Assembly: GCA_025453495.1 (NCBI GenBank)
Contig: JALOQM010000001.1
Location: 15,664 to 79,663, forward strand
Source: Minisyncoccota bacterium
GTDB lineage: Bacteria; Patescibacteriota; Minisyncoccia; Phycocordibacterales; UBA9973
Length of the DNA: 64,000 bases
Direction of reading: 5' to 3'
The position numbers and the translations under genes were made by a program. Below the pieces are notes generated by a model. It did not search any database and was not told where the DNA came from. It was given only the letters and a program-made list of their open reading frames with translations. Position 1 is the first letter of the stretch. Each line of letters starts with the position of its first letter. This document shows positions 3,059 to 31,581 of the stretch, piece by piece.

Positions 3059-3293
3059 CTTGAGATCTGTATTGAAAGTCTAAATTTACTCTTTAAAAAA
3101 TGAGAGAGTTTGAGTCGAATCGAATTATCATTCACGATACAACAATTTCACAATTGGAAACCTTACCGAACTGAAAATTGTCAGTTATAAGTTCACATTT
3201 TAATTTTATCCTACTTTTTTATCGAAATGGAGTTTTTGTACTAACTAAAAAACACCCCCGATTCCTCGAGGGTGCTATCTTTGTTAAGAGACT

Positions 3294-4319
3294 CTATAGC
3301 CTTAAAAGAGTAATCTTCTCGCCTTTTTTCACATAAAACGAATATTGTTTATCATTTACGAAAATCTCTAAAGTGCACGGTGGCTTTAATCCTTCGTCTT
3401 CAATAACAATCTCAACTACATTAATGTTTGGATCAATTGGTATTTGATATGGTTTACGTTCAATACTAATTGAGTGTTCTACAATTTTTCCATCAAAATA
3501 GACAGAGATTTTGTCTCCATCTATTTGGACAAAATCTCCAAACAAGATAGTATCTCGCTTAGAAACAATCAATGAAAACTTAGTTGAATCTTGGACTACT
3601 GCTTGCACATGTACAGATGCAACTAAGTTAGGATTATTAACTAATTTTTCAATAACTGCGAATCGAGCGGGTTCAGCAACCATTTTTCTTATTGAATCTG
3701 AAATAAAAACCATATTCAGTCTCGGTTTTTTGTATTTCAATGCTATTGGTGTTCTCCAACAATCACTGGTTGTATATCCAATCAAAATTTCACTTGGTAA
3801 AATAGTAGGATGCCATGGAAGATAACTTGGGTCACTGGTTTCGATTACTATAATCGAATTAATTTTAGAAATCTTGTTTCCTTTTATCTTTATATCTCTC
3901 CACCTGCAATTCCCTGTTTTTTGAAACATTTTCCATTCTTCAAGTGCGGTTTCATAACTGAAAACATTACACCAATAGCCTGTTTCATCTACTACACCTG
4001 ATTTGCTTTTGTTGTACTTTTCCCATTTTCTCTTTCCAGTATGTTTATATTCCTCACCGGTAAGTGCATTCCAGGAACTTTCATGATCATATAAGTAGTC
4101 TTTTGTTAAGATTTTACTACTTACTAATTGATAGAGTTTTACACTATCTTTGTTTAGATTAAACTTCTTTTTATCAAACGTATACCAATACTCGTTTGAA
4201 AAGTTCTGTATACTTGCACGAATTGCTAACGCAAGCGTAGTGTCATTTGCAGTTTGAGCAAATGTTTGTAGCTTATTTAAAGCTAATAACAGAATAATTG
4301 AAAAAAGGATTTTTTTCAT
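3294..4319 (-). CDS. Secreted hypothetical protein (signal peptide)
   Basis: N-terminus MKKILFSIILLLALNKLQTFAQ has the n-h-c organisation of a signal peptide; no recognisable domain. Confidence 0.45.
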   Translation of the reverse strand: MKKILFSIILLLALNKLQTFAQTANDTTLALAIRASIQNFSNEYWYTFDKKKFNLNKDSVKLYQLVSSKILTKDYLYDHESSWNALTGEEYKHTGKRKWEKYNKSKSGVVDETGYWCNVFSYETALEEWKMFQKTGNCRWRDIKIKGNKISKINSIIVIETSDPSYLPWHPTILPSEILIGYTTSDCWRTPIALKYKKPRLNMVFISDSIRKMVAEPARFAVIEKLVNNPNLVASVHVQAVVQDSTKFSLIVSKRDTILFGDFVQIDGDKISVYFDGKIVEHSISIERKPYQIPIDPNINVVEIVIEDEGLKPPCTLEIFVNDKQYSFYVKKGEKITLLRL

Positions 4320-4888
4320 GATTTTGGTTGTGTTTTAAGATAAGCACGAGTCAAACAGAAGCTCTATAAGCTGCTGGTTTTATAGTGGTTATCCTTATTG
4401 TGAAAGAAGATAATTATTTTATCTTTCTATATTATAGCATATAGAATATAATTGTCAAATATATGTATATATTGGGATAATGTGCACATATATATGACGA
4501 AATACTTTATTTAAAAAACAAAGAATTATTTGCGTATTAAAAAAGATGTGAATAGCACAAAAGAAAGTTAATTTACAATAGATTTGGAAAAAATCTTATA
4601 AAAGATAAAATCATTTCATGAATGTAATTACATCATTCAATGAAGAAAAATTCGTAGCGACAAAGTAACACAGTTTCACTATGAAGAGCTACTTATAATC
4701 GTATTTTCAATTCTAAGAATTTGATTGACTTGTTTTATGTAAAAAATGAGAAATACTATTGAATCCTAAGTAGTGGTGATAGTGAGAATATATACGAAGA
4801 AGGAGTTACCAGTAGATAAAAAGAAGTAGTAAAAAATAAAAATAATTTTGAGCCAACTTTGCAAACGCAATACTCCTTAGTCTACATA

Positions 4889-5494
4889 CTAGCGACGAGT
4901 CGTCCAAATTCTCTTGATAAATGTACGTAGTAATATAATCACTATAGATGTCACAAGAATAACAAAGATAAGCGTGATTGTACGTGGTCCGAGGTAATTG
5001 GTAACAACATTACCTGCATAGATACCCAGAAATCCCCATAAATATGATCCGATGAAACTATAGATCATATATCTTCTCGTCCGTACACCACGTATCGCCG
5101 CAAAGAGTGATGGCGTCGATCGTATGACTGGGAGCAGCTTGCCAAAGATAGATACGATAGCTAGATGTCTATCAAAAAGATCCCACGAGCGTTGATACTT
5201 CTCGTGCGTAACAAAACGTGATACCCGCGGTAAATGTCGAAATTTCCTGCCCAACAAAAACCCAAACATATCCCCCGCAAAACTCGCTGTCCCGACAACA
5301 AGTGCGCCAACAAATGGAGAGAGTATTCCTTGTGCAGCGAGACTTCCTGCAAAAAGCGCAATCGTGCCACCCGGCAGTACCGATCCGATAATAGGAAGTC
5401 CTTCAGTAAATGAAAATACTCCGAGTAGAAGAAGTTGCAATACAAGTGGAACACCACTGACAAAAGAGAGAATAGCTTCAGAAAATGAATCCAT
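4889..5494 (-). CDS. DedA/SNARE-associated (TVP38/TMEM64) family membrane protein
   Basis: Multi-pass membrane protein with the family's Gly-rich re-entrant motifs (GxxPGGT...LAG). Confidence 0.7.
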   Translation of the reverse strand: MDSFSEAILSFVSGVPLVLQLLLLGVFSFTEGLPIIGSVLPGGTIALFAGSLAAQGILSPFVGALVVGTASFAGDMFGFLLGRKFRHLPRVSRFVTHEKYQRSWDLFDRHLAIVSIFGKLLPVIRSTPSLFAAIRGVRTRRYMIYSFIGSYLWGFLGIYAGNVVTNYLGPRTITLIFVILVTSIVIILLRTFIKRIWTTRR

Positions 5495-5848: not shown

Positions 5849-6077
5849 GCAGAGCAGGAAGGCAAACTTCTGGTCGAGGTGTGGCGGAAAACCGCGAGTA
5901 GCTGAACGCGGGGTTCAGTGTCTTCGTTGGGATTTGCGTCCATATCCTAAAGTTTCGAAGCTCTAGGGGTTAGGTCGACTTTATTCAGATGTTGAAGATA
6001 TTATACCTCAAAAGGAGGTACTTGGGTACTTTAGCTTAACTTTAAGACGTTGTGTAGTGAAGTTACCAACAACTTGT

Positions 6078-6785
6078 TTAGCAAAGACCAGCCCCAATAG
6101 TTTCAAGCTTTTCCTTAACTCTCTCCCATTTAGGGTACTTTTCATCAAGTAATCGCCAGAACTTTGTATTGTGATTTTTGTATTTCAAATGACAAAGCTC
6201 ATGAATTATTACGTAGTCGATACAATCTTTTGAAGTATGAATTAGTTTAGGATTAAGAAATATTTTGTCTTTGTTGAGAAAACTACCCCAACGTTTCTTC
6301 ATTTCTCGAGTAGCAAGAATAGGAGTATTTTTATATTCAAACTTATTTAACATTTCCTTGAATCTATCTTGAAAAACACTTTCTGTTTTTACTTCAAACC
6401 ATTCATCAACCAGCTTTTTATTGTGGCGACTGTTTGAAACCTCTTTTGTGGTGTAAATAGTTAGAAGTCCTCTTGTTAATGAAACAAGGTCCTCTTTGCC
6501 ACGTCTTACGACCAGCTTATATTGTCTACCAAGATATAAATATCCCTCGCCAGAAATATATTCTTTTTCGTAAATCTTTCGTTGGTACTTTTTGAAAAAT
6601 GAAAGCTGTTTTTCTAACCAGAACCACTTTTTCTGTAAGAAGTTTTCTATTCTTTCATTATCGGTTTGTAGTGGACACTTAAGAATAATACGTAAGTCTG
6701 GAGTGACAGTGAGAGACAGTGTTTTACGATCTTGTTTTATAAGTTGGTATTCATATACAAATGTTCCAAATATGAATTCTTTCAT
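6078..6785 (-). CDS. DUF45/YgjP-like zinc metallohydrolase (WLM/M48-like HExxH)
   Basis: HELCHL motif. This family is often encoded next to type I hsdR genes. Confidence 0.7.
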   Translation of the reverse strand: MKEFIFGTFVYEYQLIKQDRKTLSLTVTPDLRIILKCPLQTDNERIENFLQKKWFWLEKQLSFFKKYQRKIYEKEYISGEGYLYLGRQYKLVVRRGKEDLVSLTRGLLTIYTTKEVSNSRHNKKLVDEWFEVKTESVFQDRFKEMLNKFEYKNTPILATREMKKRWGSFLNKDKIFLNPKLIHTSKDCIDYVIIHELCHLKYKNHNTKFWRLLDEKYPKWERVKEKLETIGAGLC

Positions 6786-6789
6786 AAGA

Positions 6790-9700
6790 TTAAGTGAATA
6801 AATCGAAGTTATTTTCTGCTAACAGCATTACATTATCAATGACAGCTTTGATGTGGTCGTTGTCTATTTCAATACCTTTTTCTCCTTTAACTACATCATA
6901 AAGATAGTCATCAATACTATTTCGCATCTTACGCTTAACGTCCATGTTTTTATACCAATCAACAATAGCCTCATTCTTAATGATTGCGAAAATATCAAGA
7001 ATTATAGAAATATATAATTCTTCACTAAGCTTTAGACTCTCAAACTGAGATCGTAAGTTACGGTAAAAAATATCAGAACCTTTATTTGTCTCAATATTTT
7101 CTGGAAGACTTTCATCCTTCTTGTTCACAACATCGTCACGAATTAACTTCATTTGTTTCAATGCTTCAACATCCGCAAGTTTACCTTGTCGCATCTTTTC
7201 AAGAATTTCTGAAATCTTTTTAGAAAACTTTTCGTAAAACTCAGGGTCAGTATCAAGTTTTTCGGTGATAGTTTTTTGTGTTTGTGCGGCGATAGCCTCA
7301 GCCTTTGATTTATCAGATCCAAGATTTTCAACAGCTTCTTCAAAAAGCTTTCTATCTGTAATGTTTACTTGTTTTGTTAGTAATTCAACCCCGCGAGCAT
7401 CAACATATTTATCAAGAATGTTAATAAGTGACTGCTTGTATTCTAATAGATCGACACGGTCTGCATATTGCAAACTAGCCGCCTTACGAAGCTCAGCAAA
7501 CTTTTTCAACTCACGCTTGTATAAATCAAGGTGTTTAAATTCATGCACGAAGTCTTGCAAGACAAAACACTCACTCAAATTCTTAATAAAAGCATTGAGT
7601 GTTTTGTAGAATGTTTCTCGTTTAGGTTGATCAGCAAGAAACTGTAAGTACACCTCATCATCAGATGATCCTTTTATTTCTTTAAATAAATCATGAACCA
7701 ATGAATAGCTCTGCTCGAGTTCCTGAATCTTATCTGCCACATCGATGAGGGTACCCTTCACATCGTTCTCATCATAGTTACCGAATAGCTTCATCGCTGT
7801 CTTAATATTTTTTGCGTTCTCAGAATAGTCAACAATATACCCTGCTGTCTTCGGTTTCTCTTTTGTATTTTCATAGAGACGATTTACACGAGCAATAGCC
7901 TGGAGTAAATCATGATCATGTAAATCTTTCGCTAAGTACAAGACGGTATTTCTAGGCGCATCGAATCCCGTGAGCAACTTACTCACAACAATAATAATTT
8001 CAACTCCGTCATCGTTATACTTAAAACTATCAACAACATCTTTCTCAAACTTCTCAACACTACTGTAATTTTTCTTTAAGTCCTCGAGATACTTAACAAC
8101 CTCTTTTTTATGTGTATCTTCTTCATCACCATCATCGTGTTCATCAGAAATCACAAGGGCTGTATTTATTTTTCCTGAAGTCTCAAATGCTCTTTGAAAC
8201 AAAACAGCTGAAAACTTTGACGGAGCAACGATTTGCGCTTTCAATCCAGTTCCCTGAAAATTTTCAATGAAATGTTTTTCAATATCAATAGCTATTTCTG
8301 AAATTCGATTTGGGTTATTCTGTATAATCTTTGTTCCAGCGTGCTTTTGTAGTTCCTTCTTTTGTTTATCATTAAGCCCCTCTACGATTCTTTCCATGCG
8401 TCTGTCTACCTGTTCCTGATTTTGAACAAGTTCTACATATCTTCCCTCGTAAATTAATGGGAGGATAACCTTGTCAGCCAAAGCATCATCGATAGTGTAT
8501 CTATCAATTTCCCCTCCAAATTTATTCCAACTTTTATCATTCTTTAAAAGAGGAGTTCCTGTAAATCCAATATAGCAAGCATTCGGTATAACACGGTTCA
8601 TCTCAAGATTAGCTATTCCATACTGCGTTCTGTGGGCTTCATCAATTAAAACAAAAATATTTTTATCTTTGTCTATAACAGAACCTTTTTTCCCGGCAGT
8701 TTGAAATTTTTGGACCAAAGTAGTAATAACTGCGAGTTCCTTATTCTGGATAAGATCAAGTAGATGTTCGCCACTTGTAGCCTGAACAACGTCTTTCTTA
8801 AGGTTACAGTTCTTGAACGTATCCTTGATTTGTTTATCGAGATCTCGACGATCGGTGACAATAATCACTCGAGGGTTGAGAATATGAGGGTCTTCAATAA
8901 GAGCCTTCACAAACATCACCATAGTGAGCGATTTACCAGATCCTTGTGTGTGCCATACGAGTCCACCTTTTCGGCGAGTGATGCCTTGCTCAGTAGTTTC
9001 TTCTTCCTCTATACGCTTGAGCATCTTGTGAATAGCAAAATATTGCTGATAGCGTGAGAGCTTCTTTACTCCTGCATCGAAAAGAATGTAATTCTTGGTG
9101 AGGTCAAGTAACCGCTTTGGTTCAAATAAAGAAAATATACCTCGATCTTGCTCAGTAGGTAATCTGTCTGTTCTTTGCTTATGTCCCTCGGTGTAGCCGT
9201 TGAGATCTTCGAGAATCTGCTTGTATACATCGGCATCAATAGGCTTCTGTATTAGCTTGCCAATCTGTGTATTGAGGTCTTCTTCTTTTGCACCTTTTTC
9301 TTTCCAAACAGCATAGAACTTGTTAGGTGTGCCTGTTGTTCCGTATTGCAAATCTTTTCCATTGGTACCAACGAGAAGCTGGGTATAGGTATAGAGCTTT
9401 GGACAATACTCAGGACCTTGGTTTCGGTTCATCTGGTTGATGGCCTCTTTCACATCAACACCAGACTTTTTGTTCTCAATCACTGCAAAAGGAATGCCGT
9501 TCACAAAACACACAATATCAGGACGGATATTCTGTTTACCACTCGCTACAAATTCAGCAGATACATGGAATGCATTATTCTGTGTGTTCTCGAAGTCAAT
9601 AAACTTGAAGTTCTTTGATATCTTTTTGCCTCCATGGCTTACCTTTATAGTCTTGCCACCACTGGTAGGCATGATGATGTTGTAGATCTTTTGAGCGGTA

Positions 9701-9975
9701 TCAATAAGTCCTTCGTATTGGATATGCTCAAGCTCATCGATAGCGTCACGAACATCTTTTTCACTGAACTTGTAGGTAGTTCCATCAACTTCGTACCCGT
9801 TTATGTCCATGAGTTTCTCGGTAGCAATATCAGCAAGGATGAAGTTTGAAGTATCACCGGAACGCTGTCTGAGTGCTTCCTCGGCAGAAATATATGTATA
9901 GCCCATGCTCAAGAGAAGCTCTATGAATGGGAGCTGTGATTGTTTTGCTTCATCAAAATGTACTTTTTCTAACAT
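6790..9975 (-). CDS. hsdR: Type I restriction enzyme R subunit
   Basis: 1061 aa with SF2 helicase motifs (GSGKS Walker A, DEAHR box) and the type I R architecture. Confidence 0.9.
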   Translation of the reverse strand: MLEKVHFDEAKQSQLPFIELLLSMGYTYISAEEALRQRSGDTSNFILADIATEKLMDINGYEVDGTTYKFSEKDVRDAIDELEHIQYEGLIDTAQKIYNIIMPTSGGKTIKVSHGGKKISKNFKFIDFENTQNNAFHVSAEFVASGKQNIRPDIVCFVNGIPFAVIENKKSGVDVKEAINQMNRNQGPEYCPKLYTYTQLLVGTNGKDLQYGTTGTPNKFYAVWKEKGAKEEDLNTQIGKLIQKPIDADVYKQILEDLNGYTEGHKQRTDRLPTEQDRGIFSLFEPKRLLDLTKNYILFDAGVKKLSRYQQYFAIHKMLKRIEEEETTEQGITRRKGGLVWHTQGSGKSLTMVMFVKALIEDPHILNPRVIIVTDRRDLDKQIKDTFKNCNLKKDVVQATSGEHLLDLIQNKELAVITTLVQKFQTAGKKGSVIDKDKNIFVLIDEAHRTQYGIANLEMNRVIPNACYIGFTGTPLLKNDKSWNKFGGEIDRYTIDDALADKVILPLIYEGRYVELVQNQEQVDRRMERIVEGLNDKQKKELQKHAGTKIIQNNPNRISEIAIDIEKHFIENFQGTGLKAQIVAPSKFSAVLFQRAFETSGKINTALVISDEHDDGDEEDTHKKEVVKYLEDLKKNYSSVEKFEKDVVDSFKYNDDGVEIIIVVSKLLTGFDAPRNTVLYLAKDLHDHDLLQAIARVNRLYENTKEKPKTAGYIVDYSENAKNIKTAMKLFGNYDENDVKGTLIDVADKIQELEQSYSLVHDLFKEIKGSSDDEVYLQFLADQPKRETFYKTLNAFIKNLSECFVLQDFVHEFKHLDLYKRELKKFAELRKAASLQYADRVDLLEYKQSLINILDKYVDARGVELLTKQVNITDRKLFEEAVENLGSDKSKAEAIAAQTQKTITEKLDTDPEFYEKFSKKISEILEKMRQGKLADVEALKQMKLIRDDVVNKKDESLPENIETNKGSDIFYRNLRSQFESLKLSEELYISIILDIFAIIKNEAIVDWYKNMDVKRKMRNSIDDYLYDVVKGEKGIEIDNDHIKAVIDNVMLLAENNFDLFT

Positions 9976-9979
9976 ATAG

Positions 9980-10825
9980 TTATTTTAATTTCTTCTTACT
10001 TTTTTGCGCCGGCAGATAGTTCTCACCAGTGACGACCTTTCTCCCTGTTTTTTCTTCGAGTGCAAGTCTGGCATCTTTTGCAATCTTGCCACCTTTTTGC
10101 GCAGGAATTTTATTTTCTTCCAATCCTTTCGCTTCGGTATTCTCTGCAATCTGTCGTGTTGAAAGCTCCGCAAGTGCGGTAAAGATGAGCTCAGCCTCAG
10201 ACATATGATCACGAACATTTGCGGTCTTCCCCAAGCCTTTCAATTTTTTATGATCTTGCACACCAAGCCCACTCCACTCTTGGTGAATGATATTCGTCAG
10301 AATCGCATACTCCTTACCCTCTTCTACACCCGCAGATTTCCAATAGTCGGTGAGCTTGTTGCGTGTCTCTTGCCCCATCATGCGCTGCTGTATCCACTTG
10401 TCGCTTCGGCCATGCTTTTTCCAATACTCGCGCGAACGGTTGAGTGCTATCTCTGGGTTTACCATTTCGTCGATTCTCTCCTGTCCGACCTTTGCAAGCC
10501 ACTGCTTGAAAGGCTCGGCCTTAGGTGAAGAAATGGATTGGATAATACGGAACATACCTTGCAAATTGGACATATTTTCTACACGCTTCTTACCATCACG
10601 AGCAACTACGTCAAGGGGGGTACAAATTGTACCCCAGTTGACAGAAAGCTCAGGATCACGTGTACGCATCTTTTTGATATATTGTTTTACATCTTTCGAC
10701 TCAGAAAGCACCCGTACGACATCAGAAACAGCAAAATACCATTGCTCGTCATGCCACACGCGACGCACCTCTGTTGCCTCAAATATTGCGGGTACTATAT
10801 TTTTTTGTATTTGTGGTTTTTTCAT
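9980..10825 (-). CDS. Bro-N domain protein, DNA-damage-inducible protein D (DinD)-like
   Basis: N-terminal Bro-N-like block (TEVRRVWHDEQWYFAVSDVVRVL). The C-terminal HKKLKGLGKTANVRDHMSEAELIFTALAELST pattern resembles DinD. Confidence 0.55.
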   Translation of the reverse strand: MKKPQIQKNIVPAIFEATEVRRVWHDEQWYFAVSDVVRVLSESKDVKQYIKKMRTRDPELSVNWGTICTPLDVVARDGKKRVENMSNLQGMFRIIQSISSPKAEPFKQWLAKVGQERIDEMVNPEIALNRSREYWKKHGRSDKWIQQRMMGQETRNKLTDYWKSAGVEEGKEYAILTNIIHQEWSGLGVQDHKKLKGLGKTANVRDHMSEAELIFTALAELSTRQIAENTEAKGLEENKIPAQKGGKIAKDARLALEEKTGRKVVTGENYLPAQKSKKKLK

Positions 10826-10829
10826 ATAT

Positions 10830-11114
10830 TTATTTGATTGGCATTGCTGATAATGTTTCTCGCCCAGCTAAATAAGATTTGAGCCTATTTTTTATAAACA
10901 TCTTTCCGTGGTATGTTTTTAAATACTTCTCTCGATGAATTGCGTCATTTTCATCAAGACACGCTTCATAATATACAAGCTCGAGTGGTCTTCGTGGTGC
11001 GGTAGATTCCACTTTGCCTTTTTGGTGTTGCTCAAATCTTAATTTTAAATTTTTACTATAACCAGTATAAAATTTGTTGTCTTTTTTTGATTGTAATAAG
11101 TAAGTGTAGTACAT
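10830..11114 (-). CDS. GIY-YIG nuclease superfamily protein (UPF0213/YhbQ-like)
   Basis: MYYTYLLQSKKDNKFYTGYSKNLKLRFEQH is a classic GIY-YIG core; 94 aa. Confidence 0.7.
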   Translation of the reverse strand: MYYTYLLQSKKDNKFYTGYSKNLKLRFEQHQKGKVESTAPRRPLELVYYEACLDENDAIHREKYLKTYHGKMFIKNRLKSYLAGRETLSAMPIK

Positions 11115-11125
11115 AAAATTTAAAA

Positions 11126-12358
11126 TTATTTAGCGGGGTCTGGTGTACGAATTGTGCCAGTGATCAAATTATTGAGGAGATACTTCTTTTGATCCTTAAT
11201 GATTTGAAGTTTCTTCTCAAGTTCTTGGATTTCATCTTCGGCAGTATTGAGTATCTTTGCGATTGCTTCTTGTTCTTTTATATCTTTAGGTAGATATATT
11301 TTGCATTCACCAATATCTCCCAGATTAATCTTTATAGGGAAAGCAACGTGTAGTGTTTTGGCTCTCAGCTCATTTTGAAAATCCTTAGTTGTAAGAAAAA
11401 AAGATAACGCTTTTGAATCAAAGGACCTATTAACTTTAAGAAGCGCTAATGTGACGTAGAAAGATGCTTTAACATCCCAATCTATATACTTGATGGCACC
11501 AATACTTCCAATTCGCGTCATCAAAATATCACCTCTTTCTATTCGAACTTTCTTTATCTCAGATTCATAAACTTTCTCTGAAATATACTTTGTATTTTTA
11601 AAGTCATTAGAAGTTACATGTTCGACACTATAGAATGGAATCCCGTGCTCGACATATGTAGGAGTCTGGTGAGTGCCATCGTATATTTTACAAACGTCTT
11701 TTAATAAAAGCGTCTGCCATTTATCTCCAAATCCAGACAAGCGTTTTTTGCCAGAAAGTAAATTTTGTTTTAAGGCTAATCTTATATTTTTCTTGATCTG
11801 AATTTTCTTTGAAAGTTTTTCAATTGATTTATCCCAAGTTTCAAGAACTGAAACGATGCGATTTTGTTCTGGGAGAGGAGGAAGTTTTATTTTTATAGAT
11901 TTAAGAATTTGCAAATTCAAACCACCACGACCACCGTCACCGGCAGAGATAGATCTTAATTCTTGATATCGTCTTTCTAAATCTGACCTTAAAAAACTAT
12001 AGCTAATATCTTTCTTTGGTATAAAAAAAGCTATGGACTGATTTGTAGTAAGTGAAATTTTATTTACAGCAACCTTTCCTCTTGTAGAACCCTGACCAGC
12101 TAAAGCAATCAAAACACTGTTTGCTGGCACTATTTTCGCTGATGAATTTTTAAAACCTTCATCAGTTATAAAATTTTCTGTTTGATAAATATTTTTCTTA
12201 TTGATTTCGGCTGAATTAGCCCATGGAATATTTCCACCTTCCCAGTATTCCAAAACATCTGTCGAAGGTGTACCTCCAGCAGAAATATCACAAACAACAC
12301 CAATCTTTACTTGCTGCCATTCTGGATGAATATTTTTTTGTTGTTGATTAGTTTTCAT
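11126..12358 (-). CDS. hsdS: Type I restriction-modification specificity subunit (two target-recognition domains)
   Basis: 410 aa with two TRD-like halves and conserved LPPLPEQ-type spacer and C-terminal repeats. Confidence 0.85.
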   Translation of the reverse strand: MKTNQQQKNIHPEWQQVKIGVVCDISAGGTPSTDVLEYWEGGNIPWANSAEINKKNIYQTENFITDEGFKNSSAKIVPANSVLIALAGQGSTRGKVAVNKISLTTNQSIAFFIPKKDISYSFLRSDLERRYQELRSISAGDGGRGGLNLQILKSIKIKLPPLPEQNRIVSVLETWDKSIEKLSKKIQIKKNIRLALKQNLLSGKKRLSGFGDKWQTLLLKDVCKIYDGTHQTPTYVEHGIPFYSVEHVTSNDFKNTKYISEKVYESEIKKVRIERGDILMTRIGSIGAIKYIDWDVKASFYVTLALLKVNRSFDSKALSFFLTTKDFQNELRAKTLHVAFPIKINLGDIGECKIYLPKDIKEQEAIAKILNTAEDEIQELEKKLQIIKDQKKYLLNNLITGTIRTPDPAK

Positions 12359-12415
12359 AATTTCACTGGTTTAATTGAGATATCTATAATTTAGATATCT
12401 CTTACTGCCCTCAAA

Positions 12416-12640
12416 TTATTCTTTACTCTCGTATCCTTTTTTACAATTCAGCATAATGTAAGAATTTAATCCTTGGCCAGCTTTGGCAAGTCTTTTCATT
12501 TCATTTACGTGAATTTCACCCGCACTTTGATTGGTGTATTTATAGATACTAGAGTCTTTAAATTGAACTCGTATAAAATCTACACCAATTTCAAAACCTT
12601 TTACATTAGAATCTCCCCCTAAATTTGCGTATGTTTCCAT
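12416..12640 (-). CDS. KTSC-domain small protein
   Basis: FIRVQFKDSSIYKYTNQSAGEIHVNEMKRLAKAGQGLNSYIMLN fits the KTSC pattern (Y.Y...Y..L..A.S.G.YFN). Confidence 0.45.
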   Translation of the reverse strand: METYANLGGDSNVKGFEIGVDFIRVQFKDSSIYKYTNQSAGEIHVNEMKRLAKAGQGLNSYIMLNCKKGYESKE

Positions 12641-12699
12641 ATGTCATATTTGGCTAACTAATAATTAGTTTAACGACATTTCGGTCATTATAATGAATA

Positions 12700-13950
12700 T
12701 TATTCTTCTGAAGCTCGTTTAAATTTTTCTTGCATAGTCGGATTTCCTTTTGTTAATTTTTTAATAGTTAAATCATCAGCTTTATTATTTGCCAAACGAA
12801 GATTATTTTCCGAAGCCAAAAGATTGTCTTTAATCTTTTGAAGATGATCAATTGATTTATCAATCTCTTCTACAGCTGCTTTGAATTTTTGACTTGCTAA
12901 ATTGTAATTACGAGCAAATCCTTCCTTAAAAGCATTGAGGTTTTCTTCAAAGTGAGTAATATCTACATTTTGACTTTTCACAACAGCGAGTTCTGCCTTA
13001 TATTGCATCGAATTTAAAGCAGCATTTCGCAAAAGTGTGATAATTGGAATAAAGAATTGAGGTCGAACTACGTACATTTTAGGGTAACGATGGAATACAT
13101 CAACAATTCCAGTGTTATATAGCTCATTATCACTTTCAAGCAACGAAACTAGAACTGCGTATTCACACTTCTTTTCATTTCTATCCTTATCTAGTTCTTT
13201 CAAAAAGTCTTCATTCTTTTTCTTTGTAGCGGTAGTATCCGATTCATTTTTCATTTCAAACATTATTGAAATAATTTCATTACCTGCCTCATCATATTCT
13301 CGGTAAATATAGTCTCCTTTACTTCCAGTGGCTGAGTCATTATCTTTTTCAAAAGTAGCATTCTTAAAACCTGTTGCACGGAGTTTATTAAACTCAATTT
13401 CACAATGTTGTTCAAGAGTTTCGCCAAGCATTTTTGTTGAGAGCTTTACCTTCATGTCTTTGTAGCGCTCAATAATTTCATCTTTAGCTTTAAGCTCTGC
13501 CTCAAATTTACTATTTAAAGATAGTTCGATTTGTTGCTTTTCAGCATCCTTCATCTTTATCTCAGAAGCAAGATGGTCACGCTCTTTTTCAATTTTTGTC
13601 ACAGCCTCAGTGATTGCAAGTTTTTTTTCAGTTTCTGTCGATGAAAGCTTCGCTCGCAGTTCTGTTATTTCAAGTTCACTTTGAGACTTAGATAGATTTA
13701 CTTCACGCTCCTTTTCAGCCTTAAGTCTTGCGATTTCTAAATCTTTTTGAGCAAGGTCGTCTTTAATTTTATTTTTTACTTGCTCTTCAGCCAACTTTAC
13801 GGCACTCTCTTTTTCAGCCTTCAAAAGACTTTCTCTTTTGAGAAGCTCTTCTTCAAATTGGTGATCTCGTACTTGTTTAAGAATATCAGCATAACCTGCT
13901 TCATCAATTTTAAATGCTTTTTTACAATGTGGGCAAATTATTTCATTCAT
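12700..13950 (-). CDS. DUF2130-family protein (zinc ribbon, coiled coil, C-terminal domain)
   Basis: The N-terminus [28 protein letters not shown] is the hallmark start of DUF2130, followed by a long coiled coil. This family recurs inside type I R-M operons. Confidence 0.65.
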
Positions 13951-13957
13951 ACGTTTA

Positions 13958-15469
13958 TTATTTAATCCCTAATTCTTTTAAATATCCAACCATTTGTTTT
14001 TCAAGCTTCGCAAGCTCAGGCTCAAGAGCTTCAAGTTCTTTGAGGTTTGCTTTTATGTCCACAGGAGCTTCTTCCTCAAACGTATCGACGTATCGAGTGA
14101 TGTTGAGGTTAAAATCATTTTCCTCAATTTCCTTAAGAGAAACCTTGCGGGCAAATTTCTCTACATCCTTATGTTTCTTGTAGGTAGAGTAAATCTTCTC
14201 GATGTTCTCATCGGTAAGAATGTTCTGAGCTTTATTTGGTTTATATTCCTTTGAAGCCTCGATAAAGAAAACATCTTTTTTAGATTCGTTCTCTCCGCCT
14301 TTCTCACGTGATCGGTCAATAATAAGGATGGCTACAGGAATTCCCGTTGTCTGGAACAATCCCGCAGGTAGTCCGATAACTGCATCTATAAGATTTTCCT
14401 TGAGGAGCTGTTCGCGAATCTTTCCTTCAGCTCCACCACGGAAGAGAACGCCGTGTGGCACTACGACTGCCATATGGCCAGTCTTCGCCTTGAGTGTCTC
14501 AACCATGTGCGTGATAAAGGCAAAATCACCTTTATCCTTTGGTGGAACACCACGCCAGAATCGCTTGTATTTGTCGGCTTCTGCGTGCTCGGCACCCCAT
14601 TTTTTAAGAGAAAACGGAGGGTTTGCCACGATCGTGTCAAACTTCATCAAATGGTCGTTCTCTACAAGGAGAGGATTGTTCAATGTGTCACCCCATTCAA
14701 GTCGGGCTGAATCCTTTCCGTGGAGGAACATGTTCATGCGAGCGAGCTGATAGGTTGATCCTGTTGATTCCTGACCATAGAGTGCGTAGTTTTTTGAACC
14801 TTGTTTCTCAACTTCTTCACCTGCAAGGAGGAGGAGGCCACCTGAACCCATACAAGGATCACAAATACGTGCCCCTGCTTGTGGCTCTGCGAGCTTTGCA
14901 ACGAGCTGGGCAACGTTTCTCACAGTGAAAAATTCGCCCGCTTTCTTGCCCGCGTCGGCACCAAAGCGTTCGATCATATACATATATGAGTTACCGATGA
15001 TGTCGTCCTTCACGTCGCCGAGGTCAATCTGAGCAAAGTCCTGCACGAGATGGCGGAGCATCTTGTTTCGTTCAGCGAGCTTGCCGAGTGTTGATTCTGA
15101 GTTGAAGTCTACAGAAAATACTCCATCGAGTTTCTCTTTGTTTGTGTCTTCGATTCGATGAAGTGCTTTGTTGATTTCTTCACCAAGATTATCTTGCTCG
15201 ATTACCGAATAGATATAATCGAATGAAGACTTTGGGGGAAGATAGAAGCGATCGAGCTTCATTTTTTCTTCGATACGCTTTGTGTCGCTACCAAAACGCT
15301 CTTTGTATTCAGCATACTTCTTCTTTGAGAGGTCAGAGAGGTATTTAAAGAAAAGCATTGCAAGAACGTAGTCTTTGTAGATACCTGCATCTACCTGAGT
15401 ACGAGAAGAATCCGCTGCGTCCCAGAGGATTTTGTTTAGGTCTTCTTGTGTATATTTTTGAGTATTCAT
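13958..15469 (-). CDS. hsdM: Type I restriction-modification N6-adenine DNA methyltransferase subunit
   Basis: HsdM N-terminal domain plus the catalytic [11 protein letters not shown] (NPPF) motif and an AdoMet-binding region. Confidence 0.9.
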
Positions 15470-15470
15470 A

Positions 15471-16082
15471 TTAGTTATTAATTAGGTTAGTAAACGATGC
15501 GTTGATAATGTTTTTTTGTAATTCTTGTTTTCTCTTTAGTATCCGTTCTTGGTCTGTTATGTTTTCGTGGAGTGCGATGATGGATTTTTGAATATGTATC
15601 GGGGGTATGGGGATTTTAAAATCAATCAAATTTTTTACTAAAATACTTTGTATATAGGACCCGCCCGTAACTATTTGAAGTAATTCTTTTTGCCCGATTT
15701 CTGAGTTGAGGTATAGCGATACATATTTAGGGAGGACTGTGACATCTTGAATTCGTATTACATGAACCGAAGATGATGGCATCACCTTTGATTCATCAGA
15801 TACAAAAACTGCGGATCGAAATGAGCCTGGCCCTGACCCTCTAGAGACAAGCAAAATGTCATTATGTTGTAGGAAGTAGGGGTTTCTCAAAGATTTATCT
15901 GTAATTGTTGTAAAACCAGTTATATATTGAATATCTTGGTTTGTTTGTACATTTTTAGCTTGAAGCACAAAAATATCCCCATTTGGGTCATTTTCTATAG
16001 ACCCACGGAATGTGTACCCTGAAACAATGTCTGCTAATTGGCTCAATTTCTTGTGCATGTAAAAAGCATACTGCATTTTCAA
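15471..16082 (-). CDS. Half-size HsdS-like specificity protein (single TRD plus conserved C-terminal repeat)
   Basis: 203 aa. It ends with IPIPPIHIQKSIIALHENITDQERIL, typical of the S-subunit conserved region, and abuts hsdM. Confidence 0.65.
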   Translation of the reverse strand: MKMQYAFYMHKKLSQLADIVSGYTFRGSIENDPNGDIFVLQAKNVQTNQDIQYITGFTTITDKSLRNPYFLQHNDILLVSRGSGPGSFRSAVFVSDESKVMPSSSVHVIRIQDVTVLPKYVSLYLNSEIGQKELLQIVTGGSYIQSILVKNLIDFKIPIPPIHIQKSIIALHENITDQERILKRKQELQKNIINASFTNLINN

Positions 16083-16146
16083 AATAAAAGCAAGTTTTTA
16101 CCCTATTTAGTTACCAACAGCTAGGAAATGGGACGCTCTGGACTCC

Positions 16147-17502
16147 TTGGAGGGGTTGCGTCATCAATGTAGTTGTATGAAAACAACAGCACCAATTGGC
16201 TACGAAATGACACAAGCAGCCCAAGCACCAATAAAAGTGAGGTATTGCCTCTATGCCCGTAAATCAACGGAATCTGAGGAAAGACAGGTTCTTTCAATAG
16301 ATTCGCAGATTAAGGAAATGTTACAGCTCGCCGAGAGAGAAAACTTGGAGATTGTAACAATGAAGCGAGAAAGCCATTCAGCAAAAGAAACTGGACAACG
16401 ACCAGTCTTTAACGAGATTATTGAGGAGATACGGCAAAAGAAGTACAACGGCATACTGACATGGGCACCTGACCGTATTAGTAGAAATGCCGGAGACTTG
16501 GGAAAGATAGTAGATCTGATGGATGCAGGATTGTTACAAGAAATACGTATATATGGTCAAAAATTTTCAAACAATCCAAACGAAAAATTCTTGCTAATGA
16601 TTCTTGGATCGCAAGCGAAATTAGAGAATGACAATAGAGGTGTGAATGTAAAACGAGGATTGCGTACGAGAGTTGAAATGGGTCTCTGGCCTGGGGTAGC
16701 ACCACTTGGATACTTAAATCAAAAACATATGGATAAAAAGTGTCAGGTAATAGTCGATCCACAACGTGCTCCTGTCATCAAAAAGATATTTGAAAAAGTA
16801 GTATACGAACACTATTCAGGAAGAAAGTTATATAACTGGTTACGACACGAACTGAATTTCTATACTCGTGGCAACAAACCTCTGACCTTAAGCGGAATAT
16901 ACCGAATACTTGAAAATCAGTTCTATCATGGAGTGTTTGAGCATCCGAGAGGAAGCGGTAACTGGTATCAAGGAAAACATGAGCCACTCATCACACAGGA
17001 ACTATTTGAAAAAGCTCAAGCACAACTAAAGCGAGATAATATACAACGAGAGAATAAAGAATTCGCATTCACGAAACTATTCACCTGCGGATACTGTGGT
17101 AGTGGAATATCAGCAGAGGAAAAATGGAAACAACTCAAAGATGGTACGCATGCGAAATACATCTACTACTTCTGCTCAAGAGCGAGAGATAGAAACTGCA
17201 AGAATATGTACATACGAGAGGAAGATTTAATACTTGAGCTATTGAAGATCCTCGACAAAGTAAACATCAATGAACTAGGTATGCGAAAGAAACTAGAAGA
17301 TGAGATCGCAAGGTTCAATATCTTCCAAAGATCAGTGCTTGGAGCAACAGACAAGATTAAAAACAACAAAGATACTGAAATACGAAACTTCGCTAAGTAT
17401 ATTTTGAAAGAAGGAGCAGTTGGAGAGAAACGAGAGCTGCTAGCCAACCTAAGATCGAGAATAATATACAAAGACAAACAACTTATACTGATTGCTGAAT
17501 AA
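16147..17502 (+). CDS. Large serine recombinase (resolvase catalytic domain, recombinase domain, zinc ribbon)
   Basis: YARKSTESEERQVLSIDSQ catalytic block, a recombinase domain and a CGYCGS zinc ribbon. The likely true start is an internal Met at 16177 or 16207. Divergent from the R-M operon. Confidence 0.85.
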   Translation: MEGLRHQCSCMKTTAPIGYEMTQAAQAPIKVRYCLYARKSTESEERQVLSIDSQIKEMLQLAERENLEIVTMKRESHSAKETGQRPVFNEIIEEIRQKKYNGILTWAPDRISRNAGDLGKIVDLMDAGLLQEIRIYGQKFSNNPNEKFLLMILGSQAKLENDNRGVNVKRGLRTRVEMGLWPGVAPLGYLNQKHMDKKCQVIVDPQRAPVIKKIFEKVVYEHYSGRKLYNWLRHELNFYTRGNKPLTLSGIYRILENQFYHGVFEHPRGSGNWYQGKHEPLITQELFEKAQAQLKRDNIQRENKEFAFTKLFTCGYCGSGISAEEKWKQLKDGTHAKYIYYFCSRARDRNCKNMYIREEDLILELLKILDKVNINELGMRKKLEDEIARFNIFQRSVLGATDKIKNNKDTEIRNFAKYILKEGAVGEKRELLANLRSRIIYKDKQLILIAE

Positions 17503-17519
17503 ATTGTATAATCTAGTGT

Positions 17520-18080
17520 ATGGGACAAAATAACACTCATAATTCTGAGTCGAGGGAGCATAGATTAGAAAGATTGAAAAGTCACCCTGTTGAAGCTATC
17601 GAAACACTTCTAAACTCTATAGCTAATTTTTTCAATAACGAAATTCTACTAACACCGACACACTATCAAACATCGTTAATGTTTTTAGGTATCCATGCTT
17701 CTGCCCTTACAATTGGAGAAGTATTTTTTCAGCACAAAAGTGATTTAGATAATTATAAGGATTTTATGCGTACGTTTATCGATGGAGAAACTGAAGATAC
17801 AAAATTTTCTCTTGTTGCTGAACATATACACAACTGGAGAAATATAATTGCGCATCAATGGATAGGATCTCTAGGTCATCGAGTGGAATATGATTATCAG
17901 GCTGAATTAGGCTGGCAGATGGTCGAAGACACTCTTATTATAAATCCAAGAATATACTGCGATAAATACATGGATGCTTTTTCAGCTAGAGGGAGAATTT
18001 GGCAATATGATTCCATATTTACTGAAGAACAGATCGTAAAAGCTCACGAACAAATTGTTCGTAAATACGAAAATCGTTAA
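17520..18080 (+). CDS. Hypothetical protein
   Basis: 186-aa ORF with no recognisable domain, followed by a terminator. Confidence 0.35.
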   Translation: MGQNNTHNSESREHRLERLKSHPVEAIETLLNSIANFFNNEILLTPTHYQTSLMFLGIHASALTIGEVFFQHKSDLDNYKDFMRTFIDGETEDTKFSLVAEHIHNWRNIIAHQWIGSLGHRVEYDYQAELGWQMVEDTLIINPRIYCDKYMDAFSARGRIWQYDSIFTEEQIVKAHEQIVRKYENR

Positions 18081-18084
18081 ACAA

Positions 18085-18113
18085 AAATACACGAAATAAT
18101 CGTGTATTTTTGT
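18085..18113 (+). terminator. Rho-independent terminator
   Basis: Hairpin atacacg-aaataat-cgtgtat followed by a T-run. Confidence 0.5.
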
Positions 18114-18180
18114 TTATAATTTATGTAATCGGGTCGCACATTCGTCATAGACAAATGGGTTGACTCCGATACTAAATTGT

Positions 18181-18270
18181 CTTGGCGGAGAGGGAGGGAT
18201 TCGAACCCTCGATACCCTTTCGGATATACAACCTTTCCAGGGTTGCCGTTTCAACCGCTCACGCACCTCT
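18181..18270 (-). tRNA. tRNA-Ser (anticodon GGA), class II, CCA encoded
   Basis: Manual cloverleaf. Acceptor GGAGAGG/CCTCTCC; anticodon stem CAACC/GGTTG with loop CTGGAAA; long variable arm with GAAA tetraloop; T-arm GAGGG-TTCGAAT-CCCTC; 3' end GCCA. Confidence 0.85.
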
Positions 18271-18357
18271 CCAGATACAAGCGTCAAACGAATCTGTTAT
18301 ACCGTAAATCAACAAAAAAAGCGACACAATATAATGTGTCGCTTTGGTATAGTGCTT

Positions 18358-27890: not shown

Positions 27891-28478
27891 AAAATATTCA
27901 ATGGCTAAAGAAAAAACGTACTGCTTCACAACAGTACGCTCGAATATTTGATAAACATTTTCTACAGGGTGAATTTTAATCACAATTTTATTATATTTCG
28001 CTGCATAAGCAGTGAAAATCAAGAAGTCATTGACCTGTTTTGAGAGTTTCCTCTCTATTCCAAGCTTGCTTCTTGTTCGATAAAATCTTTCAATGCTTTT
28101 TGTTATCACTCACATGCCCGTAACAGCAATGGCTATTACGATAGCACGTGGTAAGCACATCCCTTTTCAGAAATTTCTTTCTAAATTGGTCTCTAGTAGT
28201 TAGTTCATCTTATATCTAAGCACATTATTTCAAGTAATTATTGTATTGTCAAGTGGTGATTTCCAAATTTCCTAATAGGAATCGGATAATTAGTACTTCT
28301 CGGCTCCACACATTACTGCGTTTCCACCTAAAGCCTATCAACGTAATCATCTCTTACGATCCTCAAACGATTCCTAATCTTGAAGCTGGCTTCCTTCTTA
28401 GATGCTTTCAGAAGTTATCCATTCCGAACATAGCTACCGGACAGTGCCGTTGGCACGACAGCCCGCACACCAGAGGTT

Positions 28479-28510
<32 letters not shown>

Positions 28511-28562
28511 CCCTTCTCAAGAATCAACGCCTGCAGTAGATAGGAGACCAACCTGTCTCACG

Positions 28563-29094
28563 CATCTATGTTTTACATCCATCATCCTGCGTTACGGGAT
28601 AACAGATCCTTCATTACTGAAGGGATCGGACTGTAACTTATTCATTGATTCACGAATTATGATTTATGATTCAAGAACGCACACATTCAGTCTCTACGGG
28701 TACTATTCGTACTGGAAAGTGGAGTCAATAAGTTTTCACTAATTGACTCACAGTGGACTTTGCATGAAGCCAGTTTAAGATTCATAACAATCCAAGCCTG
28801 GTCACCCAAGCGTATCTGGCACTGCCATTGGTGGTATATTAAACCCCGACAGTATTGATTCCACTTTCCAATACAAATAATTTCCCTCGGTATTGTCCTC
28901 TGATTACTCAGTTCGGATTTTACCGATATACGTGTACTTCACATCACATATCACTATATGATGCCGCCGTGCGTGCGCATACCGCGCACCATGGTCTTAA
29001 TCTCAGATTAAAACATCCTGAAAAAGAATTTCTTCCCTTCAGGTTCCTCAACGGGTTCAAACTGTTAAACCCACAAGGTCATTCTTATGACCTT
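28563..29094 (-). mobile_element. Putative ORF-less group I self-splicing intron inside the 23S rRNA gene
   Basis: About 532 nt interrupt the universally contiguous 23S sequence GGGTT(C)AAACCGT | CGTGAGACAG (E. coli ~2590s; the I-CreI-type homing site). The insertion ends in G before exon 2, the upstream exon ends in T, and no ORF of 60 aa or more lies on the rRNA strand. Confidence 0.55.
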
Positions 29095-29410
29095 AACGGT
29101 TTGAACCCAGCTCGCGTAACTTTTTAATTGGCGAACAGCCAAACCCTTGGCACCTTCTCCAGCGCCAGGATAAGTTGAGCCGACATCGAGGTGCCGAACT
29201 CCGCCGTCGATATGAACTCTTAGGCGGAACTAGCCTGTTATCCCTAGAGTAGCTTCTATCCCTTAATCTTCGGCCGCGTCTAAAGCGGACCATCGGTTCA
29301 CTTGGTTCTGCTTTCGCACCTGCTTGGCATGTACGCCTCACAGTCAAGCCAGCTTGTGCCCATACACTATCGGCACGGTTTCCATTCGCGCCTAGCTGAC
29401 CTTAATAAAG

Positions 29411-29451
<41 letters not shown>

Positions 29452-29742
29452 ACCCACCAGATACTGTCCCTTTGCGTTTTTGCCGCAAGGGTTAGAACAT
29501 GCCACGAGAAAGAATGGTATTTCACTGACGACTCCATATCAACCAAGATCGATACTTCAAAGTCTCCCATCTATGCTACGCAGTCACGCAACATGCTCAA
29601 TATCAAGCTATAGTAAAGCTTCTAGGGTCTTTTCGTCTAACTGCAGGTAATCGGCATCTTCACCGATATTGTATTTTCACCGAGCAAGTCCCCGAGACAG
29701 TTGTCCAGTCATTACGCCATTCGTGCGCGTCAGAACTTACCT

Positions 29743-29793
<51 letters not shown>

Positions 29794-30499
29794 CAGGGCT
29801 TATATCAGTCAGCTTGAGATAATCTCACCGCCGATATTTGACCTTCTGGCATTGGTCAGGCGTCACCCCCTATACATCCTCTTGCGAGTTCGCAGGGAGC
29901 TGTGTTTTTGATAAACAGTTGCCAGACATACTTTCGCTGCGCCCCATGAAATTAATCATGGGGAAGCCTTATTCCGAAGTTACGGCTGCTTTTTTGCCGA
30001 GTTCCTTGGGGACCTCTCACTCGTTCGCCTTGGTCTACTCGACCTGACTACCTGTGTCGGTTTACGGTACGGTTCCTGCGACGTTATACTTAGAGAATTT
30101 TCTCGGAAGCGTGCTTTGTGAAATCTATCCCGGCGAACCGGAACATTTCCGCTGTGTTTGGAGACTGCTATCTAAAGCAGATGCAGGGATTTTCCTCCGC
30201 ATCGGTCCTCACACCACGAACCCAAATCCAATAATGGGCTCCACATACAACCCTTCGTCCTCCCATCGTACGTCGCAGAAGTCACGGAATATTAACCGTG
30301 TGTCCATCGCGTGCGGCTTTCGCCATCCGCTTAGGCCCGACTAACCCTTGGCTGATTGACATTACCAAGGAAACCTTAGTCTTTCGGCGTGCGGGGATTT
30401 CACCCGCATTGCGGTTACTTGTGCCAACATTCTTACTTCCACACGCTCCAGATTGGCTCACGCCTTGTCCTTCACAGCAGAGTGGAATACTCTCCTACC

Positions 30500-30758: not shown

Positions 30759-30834
30759 CCTCAAATTCGGTACTACGCTTAGCCCCGATTATTTTCGGCG
30801 CAGAGATTCTCGATGAGTGAGCTGTTACGCTTTC

Positions 30835-30866
<32 letters not shown>

Positions 30867-31539: not shown

Positions 31540-31581
<42 letters not shown>

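Follow-up and report, generated by a model that had tools for sequence, protein, structure and literature searches.

The 64,000-nt stretch of DNA analysed here (contig JALOQM010000001.1 of a Minisyncoccota assembly, positions 15,664 to 79,663; hereafter the window, in whose numbering coordinates are given) carries a gene for a large serine recombinase (LSR) that is divergent from a type I restriction-modification (R-M) operon and lies near a tRNA-Ser(GGA) gene, raising the question of which DNA the recombinase acts upon. An earlier sequence-only reading had offered two answers: either the block between 6 and 18 kb is an integrated element delivered by the LSR at the tRNA, or the enzyme exchanges target recognition domains (TRDs) between the two hsdS genes of the operon. 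The results favour the first answer. We assign a probability of roughly 0.8 to the interpretation that ∼5882–18189 (∼12.3 kb) is an integrated phage-derived mobile element, that the LSR is its integrase and that the copy present in the window is likely a grounded remnant.

The features on which both answers were built, the half-size hsdS, the LSR, the tRNA-Ser and the R-M operon, were all recovered in place by the open reading frame (ORF) list, Pfam and a tRNA scan, and the host is a bacterium of the candidate phyla radiation (CPR). The recombinase had been described as a 451-aa protein; its ORF (16147–17502, +) is confirmed, but translation probably begins at the ATG at 16177, which gives a gene at 16177–17502 (+) and a product of 441 aa. 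Nearly all homologues have this length, as does MCU0660025.1, an NCBI protein encoded by a metagenome-assembled genome (MAG) of Candidatus Paceibacterota. The catalytic resolvase domain (PF00239, Resolvase, E=3e-18) is followed towards the C-terminus by PF07508 (Recombinase, E=3e-15) and the PF13408 zinc ribbon (Zn_ribbon_recom, E=1e-8), and the motif YARKS, containing Ser30, aligns with YLRRS in the SPbeta SprA/YokA structures, SprA being the nearest solved relative. NCBIfam matches to CcrB and XisF all score far under the family cut-offs and the LSR therefore does not belong to any named equivalog. Judged by its domain set and YxRxS motif, the LSR is an intact enzyme.

A protein search detected at least 8000 LSR homologues, all significant, of which the best 120 clusters are 83–100% identical to the window enzyme, the nearest relative being 95% identical. 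The hosts of these 120 clusters include Nomura-, Kaiser-, Colwell-, Magasanik-, Portnoy-, Zambryski- and Yanofskybacteria as well as others. By comparison, the best homologue of the host protein HtpX among 241 million metagenome contigs is only 68% identical. Thus, the LSR is conserved far above host genes across divergent hosts, which indicates horizontal spread. Genomic context was read from a GTDB scan of one genome per species, in which 528 LSR loci were confirmed and 80 kept (individual related loci are cited below by L numbers); flanks were limited to 10 kb, placing most left ends beyond reach, and genes in these loci were called by a simple longest-ORF rule. Two LSR copies are present in some genomes or contigs (L067 and L072, L091 and L095, L103 and L105), and 33 contigs of IMG/VR carry the LSR family. 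A second LSR paralogue, ∼56% identical and 459–463 aa in length, is also encountered tail-to-tail with the first, their 3′ ends overlapping by ∼20 nt (L054 6630–8021, L055 1369–2748, L078 11280–12659, L093 11325–12572, L202 2579–3958 and L203 4559–5938), an arrangement resembling CcrA/CcrB pairs.

A convergent tRNA-Ser was detected by ARAGORN downstream of the LSR in ∼58 of the 80 loci, with anticodons TGA, GCT, GGA, CGA and ACT, while most loci without a downstream tRNA-Ser stop at a contig edge. The distance from LSR to tRNA varies from 106 nt to ∼8 kb, with a minimum spacing of 106–126 nt. In the window, the 3′ end of the tRNA-Ser(GGA) gene (18183–18272, −; ARAGORN, 55.7 bits with Rfam) faces the LSR; between the two lie a 186-aa ORF without a Pfam match (ORF186, 17520–18080, +), which starts 17 nt after the LSR, a 17-bp hairpin terminator (18078–18116, +), and 66 nt of non-coding DNA (18117–18182, +). 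BLASTN against the related loci indicated that 18078–18212 is conserved downstream of the LSR at varying distance. The terminator opens this conserved right end, and the adjoining block of ∼65 nt, having the form ..cGGGTCgC.. ∼25 nt ..GGGTy..CCGATAnnAAATTGTC (..CGGGTCGC..GGGTTGACTCCGATACTAAATTGTCT in the window copy at 18117–18182), ends 0–3 nt before the tRNA 3′ end. It is found beside the tRNA in ∼57 loci, independent of the isoacceptor or the LSR distance. LSRs of 45–65% identity on viral contigs lie beside tRNA-Asp, -Glu, -Gln, -Asn and -Trp, which suggests that the wider clade is tRNA-directed.

Control loci were available for the tRNA itself, as the order LemA-HtpX-tRNA-Ser(GGA) is kept in ∼40 relatives. 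Among 36 tRNA-Ser(GGA) genes from relatives keeping this order, 34 are without the block and have unrelated flanks, distant relatives thus holding unoccupied tRNA-Ser(GGA) genes, and the two which possess it are apparently occupied. It follows that the block is part of the element, not of the tRNA locus. The integrated-element half of the sequence-only reading is supported by this absence, by the occurrence of the same LSR and right-end block, in dozens of divergent CPR genomes, at tRNA-Ser genes of four or five isoacceptors, and by sister elements which carry the same cargo at tRNA-Ser(TGA). The tRNA-Ser with anticodon ACT (loop TTACTAA) is well formed, often located near tRNA-Ser(GCT) and often the copy occupied by an element (L014 11403–11492, L018 12853–12942, L023 12766–12855, L036 8515–8604, L037 12769–12858, L040 11415–11504, L064 14520–14606 and L005 9514–9602); a serine tRNA with A34 is unusual in bacteria.

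The extent of the DNA contributed by the element is limited by two observations. Near-identical right-end blocks precede intact tRNAs with differing acceptor stems (TGGCGGAAGGGG, TGGCGGAGGCGG, TGGCGGAGAGGG, TGGCGGAGGATG and others), and in L008 an LSR 91% identical to that of the window is nevertheless located at tRNA-Asp(GTC), whose 3′ end is also TGGCGGA. Combined, these results indicate that element-contributed DNA ends within ∼7 nt of the tRNA terminus. At the opposite end, the left junction [variable]-TGGCGG-TGTACACGCGTTCAGTGCC... is common to five loci (L066, L067, L072, L073 and L076), and other junctions consist of TGGCGG, 13 nt and then AGTR, a recurring P′ arm. The contigs of L024 (locus end 11412) and L029 (12140) break directly after TGGCGG. 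We infer that the exchanged core lies within TGGCGGA, corresponding to U70–C72, G73 and CCA of the tRNA; the attR core of the window, tRNA positions 70–76 in the plus-strand reading, is at 18183–18189 (+). The symmetry of the P and P′ arms would place the crossover at the GG of core positions 5–6. Breaks such as those in L024 and L029 also fit assembly-graph branching at the recombination point, arising from several insertion sites or from mixed integrated and excised forms.

Direct repeats flank the elements in L044, L052, L073, L076 and L049. A crossover in the T-loop, prompted by repeats of 17–21 nt in L044, L052 and L076, was ruled out by the near-identical P arms before differing acceptor stems and by the tRNA-Asp locus; these longer repeats fit chance tRNA-like P′ arms or older remnants. 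A decayed right-end block is present immediately left of the junction in L073, L072, L067 and L076, which indicates tandem accretion of elements at the same tRNA.

In the mechanism which we propose, the LSR would recombine the attP of the element, composed of the conserved right-end block (P arm), the core TGGCGGA and the P′ arm, with the tRNA-Ser 3′ end acting as attB, the tRNA gene supplying the B′ arm. Only bases identical in element and target would be exchanged, so that the tRNA would stay intact. The predicted attB junction is ...CTGGTCGAGGTG-TGGCGGA-GAGGGAGGGATTCGAACC and the predicted circular attP ...CCGATACTAAATTGTCT-TGGCGGA-AAACCGCGAGTAGC. Cargo would be carried in two slots next to the integrase gene, the divergent R-M operon upstream and ORF186 downstream. 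Full-length relatives would be temperate phages or phage-like elements having, to the left of the cargo, a ParB-methylase, the terminase proteins TerS and TerL, the structured RNA LOOT and a small membrane protein gene. The window copy would have lost everything left of the middle of LOOT and most likely survives as a grounded remnant, retained for the defence genes it carries.

The phage connection derives from what lies to the left in other loci. Clustering of neighbouring ORFs revealed a module upstream of the LSR and on its strand which comprises a ParB-N6/N4 methylase (12 loci), TerS (10) and TerL (6). The sister element L087/L199, which carries the R-M cargo of the window at 85–90% aa identity, continues leftwards through two more genes and LOOT into TerL, TerS and the ParB-methylase. 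On the 56-kb viral contig L090, TerL, a type I R-M system, the LSR, a CBASS pair (Cap15 and CD-NTase), the right-end block and TGGCGG follow one another, the core being joined directly to the P′ arm and then to an amidase, LysM and large ORFs; on sequence grounds this junction, at L090 13990–14070, looks like an intact attP within a phage genome. Queries with the ParB-methylase, TerS, TerL and reverse transcriptase gave no match in the window.

What the window does retain of this leftward region is a truncated LOOT RNA (5896–5978, −), comprising the 5′ two-thirds only and 79.5% identical to the LOOT of L010. The homologous L010 block scores 83 bits against Rfam LOOT (RF03000). With a covariance model which we built from seven copies, the window sequence scores 43.8 bits compared to 50–136 bits elsewhere; it yields no Rfam match at E≤1, the gathering threshold of the family being 46.4 bits, and by that measure falls outside it. 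The 3′ strand of the long stem has been replaced and the downstream membrane-protein gene is missing. LOOT was detected in ∼20 of the first 82 loci searched and in 10 out of another 40, viral contigs included. In the first 82 sources it is always on the strand opposite to the LSR and, except in L007, upstream of it; one of the ten later matches, that of L092, shares the strand of the LSR and follows closely downstream of it. Compensatory changes are observed at 33 of 39 LOOT base pairs (23 matches from the first search), and in most loci a small membrane or secreted protein is encoded on the same strand, its gene beginning 52–88 nt past the end of the RNA. Rfam lists LOOT as an sRNA gene, and no function for it was seen in the literature searched. 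It may act in cis as a leader instead of being a free sRNA. LOOT occurs in ∼30 loci in all, for example L010 9665–9793, L014 9667–9794 and L006 4379–4515, and a TATAAT-like box lies upstream of it in most loci. The central palindrome of LOOT was considered as attP and rejected, as the P arm at every tRNA is a different conserved block, LOOT is located inside repeat-bounded elements (L044) and its stems covary in the manner of RNA.

The left boundary of the window copy is less sharply defined than the right. Homology to other elements stops at 5896 and a candidate attL core, TGGCGGA at 5882–5888 (+), a perfect match to the 3′-terminal 7 nt of the tRNA-Ser gene, lies just beyond. A direct repeat of the tRNA 3′ end had been anticipated at 3.1–6.1 kb: the heptamer falls within this interval, but a long repeat does not exist. 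No longer copy of the tRNA-Ser 3′ end was detected above chance in the 18 kb left of the tRNA, whether with probes of 21 and 28 nt at a tolerance of 3 mismatches or in a scan which tolerated as many as 8, so that only the 7-nt core recurs in the window, whereas repeats are clear in L044, L052, L073 and L076. The left-end motif TTCTCATCTCGC seen in L044 and L052 is likewise absent from the window. An ORF for a host PEP-utilizer starts at 5848, where the LOOT-linked membrane-protein gene would be expected. We slightly favour 5882–5888 as the attL core, and state with greater firmness that the element ends somewhere between 5849 and 5896. In our reading, the original attL core has been kept, and what was lost by deletion is the prophage body between a point just inside attL and mid-LOOT.

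The same left end can be interpreted differently, with the 12.3-kb block constituting a complete and still mobile island whose attL consists of TGGCGGA at 5882–5888 and a P′ arm which overlaps the LOOT remnant, and which the LSR could excise, possibly with the help of a directionality factor. In favour of this, the LSR has an intact ORF and shares 95% identity with its nearest relative, attR is canonical, the 7-nt core occurs exactly at the homology boundary and an inverted, imperfect copy (AGTAGCTG) of the P-arm motif CCGATACT is present 9 nt from the core. In five other lineages, however, the AGTR of the P′ arm is 13 nt from the core and not 9 nt, the window LOOT is truncated such that its long stem cannot form, and the sister element L087 continues left through LOOT to TerL, TerS and the ParB-methylase. 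In addition, minimal repeat-bounded elements have the LSR 400–600 bp from attL and do not contain a cut LOOT. The non-canonical P′ spacing fits a remnant, and we regard a complete island as unlikely. While the LSR and attR of the window are intact, excision of the present copy is doubtful.

Several points weigh against the interpretation of the block as an integrated, grounded element. Recombination itself, the crossover dinucleotide and the directionality factor are inferred from sequence. The left end is defined by a 7-nt match together with loss of homology, and a 7-mer could occur by chance; its P′ arm is non-canonical, with 9 nt from core to AGTA as opposed to 13 nt. An exact-pattern scan of metagenomes for the predicted attB gave no match, and no excised circle or empty site was found for the source genome. 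The closest relatives are only 60–68% identical in HtpX, rendering the ancestral junction unreadable. L090, of which 21 of the 56 kb were read, may be a tandem prophage and not a free phage genome. Finally, MAG labels are partly unreliable, some bins being labelled Gammaproteobacteria, Methanoregula and the like.

The interior of the integrated element appears to be organised around a cargo slot. The R-M operon is bracketed exactly by the 11-mer AGTTACCAACA, present only twice in the 64 kb (0.06 copies expected), its left copy at 6061–6071 (+) forming the distal edge of the slot and its right copy at 16109–16119 (+) the LSR-proximal edge. Cargo lies between two copies of GTTACCAACA in several loci: motif copies bracket it in L006 (three copies and two cargo blocks), L022, L054, L064, L011 and L026, and the motif is located ∼95–133 nt upstream of the LSR in ∼45 of the 80 loci. 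Loci devoid of cargo (L010, L014 and L074) have a single motif copy between LOOT and the LSR leader, and the layout LOOT, ∼80 nt, motif recurs in L006, L022, L054, L064 and L033. From this distribution the GTTACCAACA site looks like a preferred insertion point with site duplication. A conserved leader, GGGACGCTCTGGACTCC...GCGTCAT (16105–16176, +), is kept upstream of the LSR in ∼60 loci; the segment from GGGACGCTCTGGACTCC to GCGTCAT, at 16120–16160 in the window, is situated between the GTTACCAACA motif and the LSR start codon, can fold into a hairpin (GACGC/GCGTC) and may regulate integrase expression.

The upstream slot is occupied in the window by an operon which runs from 16082 down to 6078 on the minus strand, at a G+C content of 0.31–0.44 over 6–14 kb compared to ∼0.43 for the genome. 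Its first gene encodes a half-size HsdS (15471–16082, −), the single-TRD protein noted earlier, in which one PF01420 domain was indeed detected (E=8e-11); its stop codon is 1 nt from the start of hsdM (13958–15469, −; PF02384 and PF12161). There follow, all on the minus strand, a DUF2130 protein (12700–13950; PF09903, E=8e-90), a full-length HsdS with two TRDs (11126–12358; PF01420 twice), a small GIY-YIG protein (10830–11114; PF01541, E=6e-16), a Bro-N domain protein (Pfam) embedded in the operon and assigned to PDC-S13 by PADLOC (9980–10825; E=3e-111), HsdR (6790–9975; HSDR_N, SWI2_SNF2 and T1R_D3; PADLOC REase_I, E=5e-147) and, as the last gene, a YgjP-like metallopeptidase (6078–6785; PF01863, E=3e-52). 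HsdR, HsdM and HsdS are thus all present by both Pfam and PADLOC, which identifies the system as type I.

Related loci carry this cargo and much else in the same position. The R-M cargo of the window is found at 77–92% aa identity at tRNA-Ser(TGA) in L011, L033 and L087, and also in L020, whose contig ends before any tRNA; HsdM is 87–92% identical to that of these four loci. The 123 upstream neighbours include 16 HsdM-type methylases and 9 HsdS, together with Res-type helicases, N6/N4 and D12 methylases, reverse transcriptases, Thoeris TIR, AAA_15 with UvrD (Gabija-like) and KAP NTPases; single loci add CBASS, MmeI-type enzymes and an OLD-family nuclease with UvrD. By these annotations the cargo is mostly composed of defence genes. 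Reverse-transcriptase genes (RVT_1) accompanied by repeated neighbour ORFs (cluster C21) occur upstream of the LSR in L025, L032, L037, L039, L053, L054, L057 and L081, and may be cargo in the form of diversity-generating retroelements.

The slot downstream of the LSR contains ORF186 in the window and CBASS in L090. ORF186 has 211 homologues, and all six of those inspected directly follow an LSR. No match was found in Pfam, NCBIfam, PADLOC, PHROGs or a PDB profile search. The protein contains the motif WRNxxAHQW (Rx4H), within which RNxxAH is invariant in 28 sequences, and its AlphaFold model is mostly helical with a pLDDT of 90. In a Foldseek search the AbiV HEPN RNase ranks first, although weakly (E=0.1, TM ∼0.3). 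The motif and model lead us to lean, by a narrow margin, towards a HEPN-type abortive-infection protein; a role as directionality factor is a minority alternative.

The second proposal of the sequence-only reading, that the LSR acts as an invertase or shuffling enzyme which changes R-M specificity by TRD exchange between the half-size and full hsdS, is largely refuted by comparison of the two genes. The LSR does adjoin two hsdS genes, as is the case in phase-variable type I systems, and hsdM is located ∼100 bp upstream of the LSR in ∼20 of the 80 loci. However, the two HsdS proteins are only 27% identical, and no DNA repeat longer than 14 nt, direct or inverted, is detectable between their genes (E≥0.14), which are on the same strand as had been observed. 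The half-hsdS is conserved as such in the sister elements, being kept beside hsdM in L011, L020, L033 and L087 at 59–88% identity. In most loci the same LSR is tied to cargo unrelated to R-M, such as CBASS, Gabija-like systems, reverse transcriptases and packaging genes, and it has a conserved att block at a tRNA. The full hsdS, conversely, matches the sister elements only in its conserved regions, its TRDs differing (31–34% aa identity). Conservation of the half-hsdS combined with TRDs which differ between elements suggests that specificity varies by ordinary TRD replacement and not by LSR switching in the cell. Work on truncated HsdS proteins suggests that a half-HsdS may form a dimer and guide HsdM/HsdR to a symmetric site. 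By this analogy, the operon probably has two specificities if its half-HsdS dimerises, and the two HsdS would be alternative specificity subunits for one HsdM/HsdR rather than substrates of the recombinase.

That the LSR is a vertically inherited, domesticated host gene located beside tRNA-Ser by chance could be entertained from the LSR/tRNA-Ser adjacency in many CPR genomes, but is contradicted by an adjoining tRNA which can be any Ser isoacceptor and once tRNA-Asp, by the element-free tRNA-Ser(GGA) loci of 34 of 36 relatives, by LSR identities of 83–95% across classes, far above those of host genes, and by several copies per genome or contig and the occurrence of the family on viral contigs.

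Outside the integrated element, the right flank past the tRNA is core genome, encoding a membrane protein, deformylase, tRNA-Arg, HtpX, LemA and SecDF. Just left of the element, at 1001–5000, G+C drops to 0.29–0.35 and a 603-aa metallophosphatase-domain protein and a 341-aa secreted protein without a family match are encoded; this segment could be an older island, but neither mobile-element genes nor matches to the related loci were seen in it. Further into the window, a 23S rRNA match at 28271–32084 (−) spans 3814 nt compared to a model of 2925 positions, implying ∼890 nt of insertions, and an ARAGORN 'tRNA-???' at 30630–30713, located inside this match, is probably spurious. At 52152–52227 there is a tRNA-Ile whose anticodon is TAT, and at 55210–55594 a tmRNA with tag ANKVASVKSPYASAFGFAPALA.

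Taken by itself, the window contains no specificity switch but a prophage-derived defence island of a fairly ordinary kind. The family to which it belongs is of wider consequence. CPR bacteria are uncultured, have tiny genomes and exchange genes by routes which are poorly known. That an integrase 83–95% conserved across many CPR lineages carries R-M, CBASS, Gabija-like and Thoeris-type genes suggests that defence systems move between these bacteria in a common vehicle. It is unusual for a serine integrase to target the invariant tRNA-Ser 3′ end without disrupting the tRNA, and such an enzyme could serve as an integration tool where no genetics exist. LOOT, in turn, can be placed in the genome: it lies near the integrase in CPR phage-like elements, ∼60 nt ahead of a gene for a small membrane protein. 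A broader scheme, in which the elements own a dedicated site-specific slot at GTTACCAACA with integron-like exchange of defence operons, a single conserved LSR lineage moves temperate phages and their remnants across distant Patescibacteria classes with, as attB core, the heptamer common to every tRNA-Ser (and some tRNA-Asp), and LOOT is a regulatory component of this module, is tentative and, taken whole, rather doubtful. In the full-text literature on serine recombinases, tRNA-Ser elements, prophages and LOOT in CPR/Patescibacteria, we did not find the family described; coverage of this literature is incomplete and a prior description is possible.

Comparison with known systems places the family among LSR integrases. 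Those of SPbeta (SprA/YokA), phiC31, Bxb1, TP901-1 and SCCmec (CcrB) share the same domains and catalytic motif, a short core with dissimilar att arms and an integrase gene beside attP. The present family differs in targeting the 3′ terminus of a tRNA, which is left intact. A separate directionality factor is usual in the class; none was identified here, no search having been aimed at one. Phase-variable type I R-M loci with inverting hsdS, such as SpnD39III of S. pneumoniae, similarly have a recombinase by a type I operon with more than one hsdS, but the window is without inverted hsdS copies or shared repeats and its LSR has its own att site. Integron platforms resemble the elements in having variable cargo divergent from the recombinase gene and a short repeat containing GTT...AAC; in contrast to integrons, the elements have no IntI tyrosine recombinase, no recognised attC-like hairpins, a repeat of only 10–11 nt and cargo in the form of multi-gene operons.

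Further parallels involve tRNA genes. Serine-recombinase elements have been described in reviews as inserting into and disrupting protein-coding genes, and tRNA targets have been described for tyrosine integrases (PMC5704250, PMC4383910). The islands and prophages of the latter (Islander/TIGER, P4-like) are likewise located at the tRNA 3′ end, reconstitute the tRNA, carry cargo adjacent to the integrase and accumulate tandem remnants, as observed in L073, L076, L067 and L072. The enzyme here is a serine recombinase, however, and the identity segment in the window is only ∼7 nt in place of the longer stretch of tRNA 3′-end identity usual for such islands, so that no displaced tRNA fragment marks the attL of the window. 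The tycheposons of Prochlorococcus are conceptually nearest, but 910 of 937 have tyrosine recombinases and the rest LSRs (bioRxiv 10.1101/2020.12.28.424599). While the present family is defined by its LSR, resides in CPR hosts and has no replication module among the loci read, it shares with tycheposons integrases tied to particular tRNAs, forms similar to phage-inducible chromosomal islands (PICI-like, with TerS) alongside cargo forms, and islands which accumulate at the tRNA.

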